A stretch of DNA of 64,000 nucleotides, taken from positions 2,894,821 through 2,958,820 of the forward strand of contig CAWCNI010000004.1 of NCBI GenBank assembly GCA_963796915.1. The letters are read 5' to 3'. Positions 38,629-45,898 of the stretch are shown piece after piece. The notes under the pieces are model-generated. The model did no database searches. It was not told the origin of the DNA and worked only from the letters and a program-made list of their open reading frames with translations. This DNA comes from Vicinamibacteria bacterium (GTDB lineage Bacteria > Acidobacteriota > Vicinamibacteria > Vicinamibacterales > JAENWD01). Made by a program: the position numbers and the translations under genes. The stretch's first letter is position 1. Each line of letters opens with the position of its first letter.

Positions 38629-38723
38629 GGAAGCGAATGGGGCCCGGTGGCCCTCACGGTCTTCAAAACCGGCAGCTCTCCGCTTGCGGAGAGGCTCGGT
38701 TCGACTCCGAGTCGCTTCCGCCA
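38629..38723 (+). tRNA. selC: tRNA-Sec (anticodon UCA)
   Basis: 8-bp acceptor GGAAGCGA/TCGCTTCC, 6-bp D-stem with CGGT loop, CT-TCA-AA loop, long variable arm CTCTCCGC/GCGGAGAG, T-arm CTCGG-TTCGACT-CCGAG, G73 and encoded CCA; 95 nt. Confidence 0.95.
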
Positions 38724-38799
38724 CGCACACCGCCAGAACGCCATGCCACGCCGGCGTGCCCATCGCGCGCGGCGCCGATGGGCCACCGACGTCATCCCG

Positions 38800-39003
38800 C
38801 TACTTCTTGATCTTCTTGCCCAGGTCCTCGACGGCCTGACCGACCTTGCGCTTGGTCCGTCCGACGGCGTCCTGCGCCTGGCCGGCAGCTTCATCGACAA
38901 CGCCTTCGTCGTGGAGATTGGGATCGTTGGTCAGATCGCCCGCCGCCTGCTTCATGCGCCCCTTGACGACGTTGGCCTTGCCCTTGAGCTCGTCCTTGTT
39001 CAT
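38800..39003 (-). CDS. csbD: CsbD-family general stress protein
   Basis: MNKDELKGKANVVKGRMKQAAGDLTNDPNLHDEG...AAGQAQDAVG. Confidence 0.9.
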   Translation of the reverse strand: MNKDELKGKANVVKGRMKQAAGDLTNDPNLHDEGVVDEAAGQAQDAVGRTKRKVGQAVEDLGKKIKK

Positions 39004-39073
39004 GGCGACACCTGCTGCCGATCGAGTGGAGCGGCGAAGCTGCCGCAGCGTCGATTGGCCTGCCAGTGTGTTC

Positions 39074-39089
39074 ATCAATTCCAGTGCCA
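39074..39089 (-). promoter_or_regulatory. Putative sigma54-like promoter of csbD (variant -12)
   Basis: Minus strand TGGCAC-TGGAA-TTGAT; TTGA in place of TTGC. Confidence 0.4.
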
Positions 39090-39271
39090 GCCTCAGCGAC
39101 AGAAGAAGCGCGAGGGCACGCGCTTTACATCCGCGCCTGACGTCTCGCGGACCAGATCGGAACACGCTTGTAGCCTTTCGCTACCCCCTCGACAGCTCAG
39201 CCCACCGCCCGACAATCCGCGCTTCGCGCGACTTGGCGAGACTTCAGGGCATTGAGGCGCGCTTCGCGAGA

Positions 39272-39287
39272 TGGCAAACCATTTGCT
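39272..39287 (+). promoter_or_regulatory. Putative sigma54 promoter with no downstream ORF
   Basis: TGGCAAACCATTTGCT = GG-N10-GC, close to the TGGCAC-N5-TTGCW consensus. Confidence 0.65.
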
Positions 39288-39297
39288 CTAGAGGTCG

Positions 39298-39371
39298 GCA
39301 TCATTCGCCCGGCGCCGTTCCGGCAGCCGGCATCCTCCTCCTCTTGAACGGAGGGCCGACGAGGCCCTCCG
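39298..39371 (+). ncRNA. Candidate small RNA with anti-SD CCUCCUCCUC motif
   Basis: Hairpin 39309-39330, unpaired CCTCCTCCTC 39334-39343, 9-bp hairpin 39349-39371; begins about 12 nt after the sigma54 motif. Confidence 0.55.
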
Positions 39372-39423
39372 GCTCGCCCACCGCAAATCCGTGAGTTGGA
39401 AGAAAGTGAAAGCCGGCGCGCGG

Positions 39424-40137
39424 CTAGCTTTTGGAGGGGCTTGTGGTGAGGCGTCCTATTGCCTGAAGCACCTCGGTCGTCTTCGACAAATCGTCGAACA
39501 CGACGTCCGCGCCTGCGGCACGCAAGGCGTCCGTGGTGTACTCGCCGGTTGCCACTGCCACGACGGCGGCGCCGTGCGCGTGGGCGCAGGCGACGTCGCG
39601 CGGCGTGTCGCCGATCACCAGCACGTGTGCCGCTTCGACCTGCGGGCGCAGGCCCTGCGCGCGTGCGCGTTCGAGCGCGACCGGCACCAGGTGGTTCCGG
39701 TCGTGCGCGTCCTCGCCGAACGCGCCGCAGCGGAAGTGGCGCCACAGGTCGAAGTGCGCGAGCTTGACCTCCGCGGCGTCGGCGAAGTTGCCGGTCAGCA
39801 GCGCGAGGAACGCGCTTCGATCGGCGCCGAGCGCATCGAGCAGCGGCGTGATCCCCGGAAGCACCCGTTTGCCGGGCCCGGACCGTGGCACCTCCTCGCG
39901 CAGGCGTTCGAGATAGCGCGCGCGAAAGGCGCGGGTGTTGTCGGCGTCGGCCGTCATGTCGAGGCGGCCGAAGGCGTCGGCCAGGATGCTGGTGTCGGTC
40001 CGGCCCGCCAGCTCCAGCCCGGTGAAGGCGCCGCTGATGCCGAACACGTCCTCGAACGCATGGTTCATGGCGCGTTGTCCGGCGCCGCCGGTGACGACGA
40101 GCGTGCCGTCGATGTCGAACAGGATGAGTTGGTTCAT
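39424..40137 (-). CDS. HAD-family hydrolase (phosphoglycolate phosphatase-like)
   Basis: LFDIDGTL, LLTGN and IGDTPRD motifs. Confidence 0.92.
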   Translation of the reverse strand: MNQLILFDIDGTLVVTGGAGQRAMNHAFEDVFGISGAFTGLELAGRTDTSILADAFGRLDMTADADNTRAFRARYLERLREEVPRSGPGKRVLPGITPLLDALGADRSAFLALLTGNFADAAEVKLAHFDLWRHFRCGAFGEDAHDRNHLVPVALERARAQGLRPQVEAAHVLVIGDTPRDVACAHAHGAAVVAVATGEYTTDALRAAGADVVFDDLSKTTEVLQAIGRLTTSPSKS

Positions 40138-40208: not shown

Positions 40209-40793
40209 ATGGTGCAGTGGAAAGGTCTCGCGGCGGCCATCGTCATTGCCGGCGCTGGCGCGACGCTCGATGCGCGGCAGCAGGCCGGTCACGACATGTC
40301 GAAGATGAAGCCTGTCGCGGAGGCCACCGCCGACATCGCCGGCGAGGGCGTGACCGGCACGGCCACGCTGGCCGAGTATCAGCACGGCGACAGCCGGATC
40401 GTGCACGTCCACCTGTCGGTGTCCGGCCTCAAGCCCGGGTTGCACGGCGTGCACCTGCATGCGGTTGGAAAGTGCGAGACGGGACCGCCGAACTACGTCA
40501 GTGCGGGCGGGCATTTCGATCCGGGCCCGGCCGGCAACACCGACCCCGATGCCAACCATCCGTTCCACATGGGCGACCTGCCGAACCTCAAGGTGGGCGC
40601 CGACGGGAAGGGCGAACTCGAGGCGACCACCACCCGCGTGACGATTTCCGACGGACCGCTGTCGCTGCTCGACACGGACGGCTCGGCAATCATCATTCAC
40701 GGCAACCCCGATCAGGGCATCACCGGCGAGCCGAAGTCCGGCGTCTCTGGCGGGCCGCGGGTGGCCTGCGGGGTCATCAAGGCGAAGATGTAG
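40209..40793 (+). CDS. sodC: Cu/Zn superoxide dismutase, secreted
   Basis: GLHGVHLH, SAGGHFDP, HMGDLPNL, IIIHG and GPRVACG motifs. Confidence 0.93.
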   Translation: MVQWKGLAAAIVIAGAGATLDARQQAGHDMSKMKPVAEATADIAGEGVTGTATLAEYQHGDSRIVHVHLSVSGLKPGLHGVHLHAVGKCETGPPNYVSAGGHFDPGPAGNTDPDANHPFHMGDLPNLKVGADGKGELEATTTRVTISDGPLSLLDTDGSAIIIHGNPDQGITGEPKSGVSGGPRVACGVIKAKM

Positions 40794-45882: not shown

Positions 45883-45898
45883 GCAAGCAGAGTGCCAA
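45883..45898 (-). promoter_or_regulatory. Consensus sigma54 promoter of rayT
   Basis: Minus strand TTGGCAC-TCTGC-TTGC; predicted +1 at about 45871, next to ATG 45870. Confidence 0.7.

Follow-up and report, generated by a model that had tools for sequence, protein, structure and literature searches.

A candidate sigma-54-driven small RNA unit on a genome-specific csbD segment in Vicinamibacterales

Positions 39272-39371 of the window (the whole 64,000-nucleotide stretch of DNA that was analysed) may hold a small, stand-alone and lineage-specific transcription unit, in which a sigma-54-type promoter would drive a short RNA from the segment that carries csbD. We put this reading at a little under an even chance. 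Chance does not readily explain an orphan box with a stem behind it at +52 to +74, and a dedicated short unit is therefore the single most likely reading of the locus. As it stands, there is one unconserved candidate in one genome. The features are collected in Table 1.

In the proposed mechanism, the sigma-54 promoter at 39272-39287 would be switched on by one of the many enhancer-binding proteins of the genome. The RNA would start near 39298; its length would be about 75 nt if it ended at the 9-bp hairpin and about 135 nt if it ran on to the weaker stem near 39430. Its predicted fold has a hairpin at either end, with 18 nt of unpaired, C/U-rich RNA between them. Through back-to-back boxes, csbD and the RNA may be under one stress signal, and the C/U stretch would pair with GGAGG-type ribosome-binding sites and lower translation. 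The synthesis of the RNA, its end point and the pairing of its C/U stretch with ribosome-binding sites are steps that we infer. The anti-Shine-Dalgarno function is the weakest step; it is unsupported, and we regard it as quite doubtful.

Table 1. Features at and around the candidate unit (window coordinates)
Feature	Position	Strand	Remarks
tRNA-Sec gene	38629-38719	+	Rfam RF01852, 68.5 bits; left anchor of the genome-specific segment
Genome-specific segment, ~0.7 kb	38725-39450		csbD, 420-nt gap and last HAD codons; right edge approximate
csbD, 67 aa, general-stress CsbD family	38800-39003	-	Pfam PF05532, E = 8.3e-14
Degenerate sigma-54-like box TGGCACTGGAATTGAT	39074-39089	-	71-86 nt upstream of csbD; -24 perfect, -12 GA not GC
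Two copies of CGCGCTTCGCG(C/A)GA, 40 nt apart	39218-39271		Direct repeat, 14 nt, just upstream of the plus-strand box
Sigma-54 type -24/-12 box TGGCAAACCATTTGCT	39272-39287	+	Read directly; predicted start near 39298
Mini-ORF MPAAGTAPGE*, 10 codons	39301-39333	-	Abuts GAGGAGGAGG; coincides with hairpin 1
Hairpin 1, CCGGCGCCG-TTC-CGGC-A-GCCGG	39309-39330	+	9 pairs, one bulged A, loop UUC
Unpaired stretch CATCCTCCTCCTCTTGAA / CAUCCUCCUCCUCUUGAA, 18 nt, C/U-rich	39331-39348	+	Read directly, and fold
C/U run CCTCCTCCTC / CCUCCUCCUC	39334-39343	+	Minus strand reads GAGGAGGAGG
Hairpin 2, perfect 9-bp CGGAGGGCC / GGCCCTCCG	39349-39357 and 39363-39371		100% complementary, loop 5, G+C-rich
Weaker second stem, 5 bp	39411-39432		Located at the HAD stop codon; both strands have T-rich tails
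HAD-family hydrolase gene	39424-40137	-	Pfam HAD_2, E = 8.4e-14; convergent with the candidate RNA

The sigma-54-type box and the hairpin unit

The consensus of sigma-54 promoters is TGGCAC-N5-TTGCW-like. The box TGGCAAACCATTTGCT, parsed as TGGCAA-ACCAT-TTGCT, has the GG-N10-GC spacing and fits this promoter pattern. Its -12 GC lies at 39285-39286, and the +1 position was therefore predicted near 39298. The host genome encodes rpoN (PF04552, 224 bits), and its bacterial enhancer-binding proteins (bEBPs) number at least 26 (35 PF00158 matches for enhancer-binding ATPases, 26 of them at E ≤ 1e-50). The occurrence of such boxes was measured genome-wide on a gene map called crudely from third-position G+C (4286 genes, 83% coding, 16.6% intergenic). 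The strict box TGGCA-N6-TTGCW was matched 14 times, with 12 of the matches intergenic, versus 6 matches (2 intergenic) for the reversed control, 6 (1 intergenic) when the spacing was changed by +1 and 3 (0 intergenic) when it was changed by -1. Because merely 16.6% of the genome is intergenic by this crude call, the strict box is strongly concentrated between genes. An earlier note, made from the letters of this DNA, had pointed to a near-consensus -24/-12 element here, and the presence of rpoN and of at least 26 activators, together with this distribution, bears it out.

The sequence behind the other intergenic strict boxes was read by eye. An ORF starts within about 130 nt in 10 of the 11 and after a leader of about 200 nt in the remaining one; several of these ORFs encode signal peptides or a pilin, and two of the boxes adjoin activator genes. 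The 39272 box is the sole one among the 12 intergenic strict boxes with no downstream ORF. The box at 39272-39287 is probably a genuine sigma-54 site. The controls also suggest that about one chance intergenic box is to be expected per genome, for which the lone orphan at 39272 is the natural candidate. Another strict box, C2:1425558-1425573 (minus strand), lies about 16 nt before the TTG start of an IF-1-like gene in A+T-rich surroundings, and may be a chance member of the 12. At C2:640400-640575 (minus strand), a strict box adjoins an activator gene. The next called gene comes after a leader of some 200 nt, which has strong repeated stems (ccgggccgtg...cggcccg); this is possibly another structured leader or small RNA. 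The window holds a second sigma-54-type box, TGGCACTCTGCTTGC (about 45883-45897, minus strand; C4:2940703-2940717), which lies 128 nt upstream of a co-oriented gene of the crude call.

The direct repeat at 39218-39271 is a possible enhancer or activator site for the plus-strand box. The motif CGCTTCGCG occurs no more than 200 nt upstream in 4 of 206 TGGC-N7-TTGC boxes, and two copies occur solely at the 39272 box. Comparison of these 206 boxes revealed nothing telling in the way of a shared activator motif or regulon. There is no activator gene beside the 39272 locus, and the nearest bEBP matches are far off on the contig.

The elements which the earlier note had listed (the box, the two hairpins and the C/U run) were all found in place by direct reading. 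Folding of the plus strand over 39296-39376 returned both hairpins with the C/U run unpaired between them, as had been proposed, with an MFE of -38.3 kcal/mol and z = -1.95 (8 of 200 shuffles as good). The minus-strand fold of the unit gave z = -1.26 (20 of 200 shuffles as good), and a longer fold over 39298-39436 also gave z = -1.26. Relative to the predicted start, the 9-bp hairpin lies at +52 to +74. A perfect stem of at least 9 bp within +10..+130 was found behind just 1.3% of 6000 random intergenic sites, and the combination of box and hairpin is therefore an unlikely coincidence. The unit behind the box has the appearance of a small RNA gene. The 10-mer CCTCCTCCTC itself is not over-represented; the 5.2-Mb genome has 6 copies on one strand and 7 on the other.

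The 9-bp hairpin is a candidate terminator for the plus-strand RNA and/or for the HAD gene, whose stop codon lies 52 nt from it on the minus strand. Stems of at least 9 bp occur in 4.0% of 1596 gene 3′ flanks versus 1.4% of 2046 5′ flanks. There is no U-tract after the hairpin on the plus strand and merely UU on the minus strand. This absence weighs little, because strong stems in this genome rarely carry T-tails (at least 4 T in 5.7% of 211 strong stems behind genes). A terminator-like site was also found on the minus strand at 39425..39411, overlapping the weaker second stem. Behind many genes of this genome an 8-bp palindromic element recurs, GGCCGATCT-N2-3-AGATCGGCC (with variants such as GGCCAATCT...AGATTGGCC), whose tail is often CTACCG; it has the look of a dispersed REP-like repeat.

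The gap between csbD and the HAD stop codon is non-coding and measures 420 nt (39004-39423). No frame in it showed third-position GC enrichment, and tblastx against 76 related loci, including csbD loci of the order and others from genome and metagenome collections, gave nothing significant as a gene remnant. The earlier observation that the gap has no credible ORF agrees with both results. A remnant of a truncated protein gene was considered as well and was set aside, since the coding signal is absent and tblastx was negative.

The csbD segment and its insertion site

Nucleotide homology with related genomes stops at 38723-38742, just past tRNA-Sec, in 12 of 15 cases, and restarts at 39452-39491, inside the HAD gene, in 14 of 15. 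The csbD segment beside tRNA-Sec was absent in all 13 same-genus genomes. In 10 same-genus genomes, a cold-shock gene is followed by tRNA-Sec and, some 40-120 nt further on, by the converging HAD gene. csbD was found in none of 9 sampled same-genus genomes, and blastn found no second copy or paralogue of the segment in its own genome. HAD orthologues, 56-77% identical, are present in 15 of 18 other same-family genomes, and the best csbD relatives in all collections searched are 70-73% identical. The G+C content is 62% for csbD and 64.5% for the gap, versus 67-68% for the genome (5.2 Mb).

Metagenome contigs from three studies cover 39268-39418, 39168-39348 and 39174-39325 with 0, 0 and 2 substitutions, respectively. 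Because the same DNA was recovered in the contigs of three studies, the segment is not an assembly artefact. What stands at the tRNA-Sec/HAD junction varies within the family: nothing, csbD as here, an unrelated gene (two loci) or other DNA (two loci). The junction therefore looks like an insertion hot spot, suggesting that the 3′ flank of tRNA-Sec is one. No attC site and no tRNA-derived direct repeats were seen at the segment ends.

No public run covered half of the stretch, and the four that were aligned with it consist of contigs. One of them is an RNA library, X6. Of its 14 aligned contigs, only one is 99% alike, and it spans 38746-38962, on csbD; 13 lie only partly on the stretch. The low cover of about 39320-39401 in the same library (depth 1.35-1.62) was rejected as a sign of expression, and it is probably a contig of another organism. 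The missing X6 cover over 39033-39319 and over the HAD gene was given no weight either.

In Bacillus, csbD is a sigma-B gene. In soil genomes and metagenomes, a TGGC-N8-TGC box was found 37-62 nt before the csbD ATG in 27 of 88 loci, versus a chance expectation of about 2 of 88 (from 1862 matches on both strands of the 5.2 Mb). Two same-family genomes carry TGGCACAGACCATGCT and a GGAGG-type ribosome-binding site directly before csbD. It is reasonable to think that csbD is commonly driven by sigma-54 in related soil bacteria, and the stress link through csbD which the earlier note had drawn is reasonable on the same counts. The box TGGCACTGGAATTGAT matches the csbD-proximal boxes of relatives in position and type, and we infer that it would serve as the csbD promoter. 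Nearly all relatives of csbD have GGAGG-type sites, whereas the ATG of csbD here is preceded by no Shine-Dalgarno sequence.

The plus-strand box and TGGCACTGGAATTGAT stand back-to-back, about 180 nt apart, with the 14-nt direct repeat between them. Because the 39272 promoter is back-to-back with the box before csbD, csbD and the RNA may answer to one stress signal. In the closest csbD lineage (72% aa identity), the gene divergent from csbD encodes a PEGA-domain protein and is driven by a sigma-54 promoter.

Homologues, targets and known small RNAs

The earlier note had proposed an undescribed small RNA. The plus-strand box, the lack of an ORF and the fold stood as described; on the other hand, a homologue or conservation was found by none of Rfam, BLAST or a covariance model. 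A scan of the window with Rfam 15 at the gathering score matched tRNA-Sec alone, so that no family matches the feature, and at E ≤ 10 over 38950-39480 there were two unrelated weak matches, both outside 39272-39371. BLAST of 39230-39430 against 40 relatives gave two 30-nt matches; both are inside coding DNA and were therefore taken as chance. With a covariance model for which the one sequence had been entered twice, 20 heterogeneous matches (21.5-30.7 bits) were obtained in 18 of 60 relatives. The five best matches were inspected; they lack one or both hairpins or resemble coding DNA, and on this inspection no structural homologue was recognised in the 60 relatives.

Loci anchored on csbD were also collected (30 from the order, 23 from genome contigs and 69 from metagenome contigs). 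The gap was found in 0 of 92 of them (23 genome and 69 metagenome) by blastn at word size 7. By tblastx, too, it was shared by none of the loci compared. Across 401 genomes of the order, the class Box-N{32,62}-CCTCCTCC gave 13 matches versus 14 for the reversed control, and no unit similar to 39272-39371 was found among the 136 CCTCCTCC sites of the genome itself. Conservation of the unit cannot be shown, because the entire segment, and the locus with it, is absent from the relatives.

The 18-nt seed was compared by RNAduplex with 4284 crude start regions. It gave 149 windows at or below -16 kcal/mol, and five shuffled seeds gave 56-160. Pairing of the seed with ribosome-binding sites was thus not better than that of the five shuffled seeds over these regions. 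The repression of GGAGG-led mRNAs, which the earlier note had suggested, was borne out neither by this target prediction nor by the box-and-motif class across the order. As for the traits of Hfq-binding small RNAs, the genome encodes Hfq, the 3′ hairpin has no U-tail, and the seed does no better than shuffled seeds over the 4284 start regions.

Kinship with the cuckoo/CcsR RNAs had been suggested, and the candidate was compared with them as they are described in the available parts of the sources. Like cuckoo, alpha-r14, CcsR and NfeR1, it would be a short, stress-linked RNA with a C/U-rich anti-Shine-Dalgarno-like motif (CCUCCUCC) in unpaired RNA (PMC4615179, PMC10746234), and the proposed action, pairing with ribosome-binding sites, is shared with cuckoo-type RNAs. 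In the cuckoo/alpha-r14/CcsR family, 2-4 adjacent hairpins each carry CCUCCUCCC in a loop of 9-27 nt (PMC4615179). Here, in contrast, a single CCUCCUCCUC stands in the linker between two hairpins with loops of 3 and 5 nt. The family has several copies or modules per genome in alphaproteobacterial hosts, whereas the candidate is a single copy in the phylum Acidobacteriota. The promoters differ too, in so far as the sources cover them: CcsR (RSs0680) depends on RpoHI/HII and is co-transcribed with a small protein gene (PMC4615179), and NfeR1 has a sigma-70 promoter (PMC10746234), whereas the candidate has a sigma-54 box. Membership in the cuckoo/alpha-r14/CcsR family was rejected, given that the motif is not in the loops, the copy is single and Rfam gave no match.

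Stand-alone -24/-12 promoters with no ORF behind them are also known from GlmY/GlmZ of Enterobacteriaceae and Qrr of Vibrio, which are, in the available text, short structured RNAs that need an enhancer-binding activator (PMC3045617, PMC10162802). The candidate resembles them in its promoter. However, the Rfam scan showed no sequence or structural relation to them, and the candidate differs from them in having no adjoining activator gene, no U-rich tail and no conservation. In E. coli, non-productive or orphan sigma-54 sites have been mapped genome-wide and are, as far as the available part of the report goes, largely intragenic and conserved (PMC4591121). The 39272 box is like them a good consensus site that does not front a gene; unlike them, it is intergenic, stands on a genome-specific segment and is followed by a rare strong hairpin.

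Competing readings and wider meaning

The main rival to a dedicated short unit treats the locus as a leftover of the insertion that has no function. The box, once real or there by chance, would have lost its gene when the csbD segment left its donor; GAGGAGGAGG-ATG would be a remnant of a second lost gene (ribosome-binding site and first codons), the hairpin would end transcription of the HAD gene, and any RNA made would have no evolved role. In favour of this, the gap is confined to this genome in its entirety and adjoins a tRNA gene, and the cargo of this junction differs in other genomes. The closest csbD lineage has the same back-to-back layout with its PEGA-domain gene, the G+C of both csbD and the gap is below that of the genome, and the controls allow about one chance intergenic box. 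Moreover, stems of at least 9 bp follow genes about three times as often as they precede them, and the best covariance-model match in a relative is a hairpin followed by a GGAGG run, read backwards. However, the downstream frames have no coding signal and tblastx found no gene remnant, the HAD gene already has a T-tailed stem at its stop codon, and a 9-bp hairpin at +52 would have to be luck, given its frequency of 1.3% behind random intergenic sites and 4% in gene 3′ flanks. We consider the leftover unlikely, if still a serious contender.

The two remaining alternatives assign the transcript differently. The minus-strand mini-ORF that the earlier note had raised is indeed present, running from 39333 to 39301 and abutting GAGGAGGAGG, and the locus could be read from that strand: a transcript running past the HAD gene, or starting after its hairpin, would present the Shine-Dalgarno run and a translated 10-codon ORF. 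This ORF would either yield a small peptide or serve as an upstream ORF within a long leader of csbD, and the plus-strand box would be irrelevant. The run stands directly before an ATG, about 10 of 28 intergenic GGAGGAGG sites in the genome precede evident gene starts, most csbD relatives, but not csbD here, have a Shine-Dalgarno sequence at the ATG, and a terminator-like site at 39121..39108 (minus strand) could close the unit. However, the gap between the GGAGGAGG run and the ATG is 0 nt, shorter than the 2-8 nt measured by eye in 10 evident ribosome-binding sites with the same 8-mer. The ORF has just 10 codons, overlaps hairpin 1 and shows neither conservation nor coding signal, no minus-strand promoter was found upstream, and the sole sigma-70-like site listed is on the plus strand. 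Translation of the mini-ORF is very unlikely on these grounds. Alternatively, sigma-54 would bind the box and the transcript would be long, reading through the hairpins antisense to HAD and possibly as far as position 40209, where a Cu/Zn superoxide dismutase gene lies. A U-tail is missing behind the 9-bp hairpin on the plus strand, and the next plus-strand gene, about 920 nt downstream, is a stress gene (Sod_Cu). Against this, two consecutive stems lie in the path, the missing tail says little where strong stems are rarely T-tailed, and no other strict box has a leader near 900 nt when read by eye. A long transcript is highly improbable.

The dedicated short unit, if real, would belong to established kinds, as a sigma-54-dependent small RNA with an anti-Shine-Dalgarno-type seed, and would be restricted to one genome-specific segment. 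Acidobacteriota (order Vicinamibacterales), a phylum abundant in soil, would gain a regulatory RNA, and a stress gene and a companion RNA would be seen to move together as a small unit. A limited literature search found no work on sigma-54-dependent small RNAs in Acidobacteriota. The gain would be modest, because sigma-54-driven small RNAs and anti-Shine-Dalgarno small RNAs are both established ideas. In a bolder form, which we think improbable, the segment of about 0.7 kb would be a portable stress module of two parts, which inserts next to tRNA genes, with back-to-back sigma-54 promoters and one enhancer serving csbD and an anti-Shine-Dalgarno RNA. The exposed CCUCCUCCUC would then mimic the 3′ end of 16S rRNA and damp the minority of mRNAs that are led by a Shine-Dalgarno sequence. 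Only about one quarter of the crude gene starts have even a 4-mer Shine-Dalgarno core (25.5% of 4285, versus 12.3% of random 17-mers). If true, such a module would be the first case of a sigma-54-dependent anti-Shine-Dalgarno RNA, and the first such regulator in Acidobacteriota.

A sturdier by-product of the analysis is the sigma-54 box that often (27 of 88 loci) stands before csbD in soil Acidobacteriota and in Rokubacteria-like contigs. A different upstream motif (cattgacc...catgaacagat) is common to another group of csbD loci.
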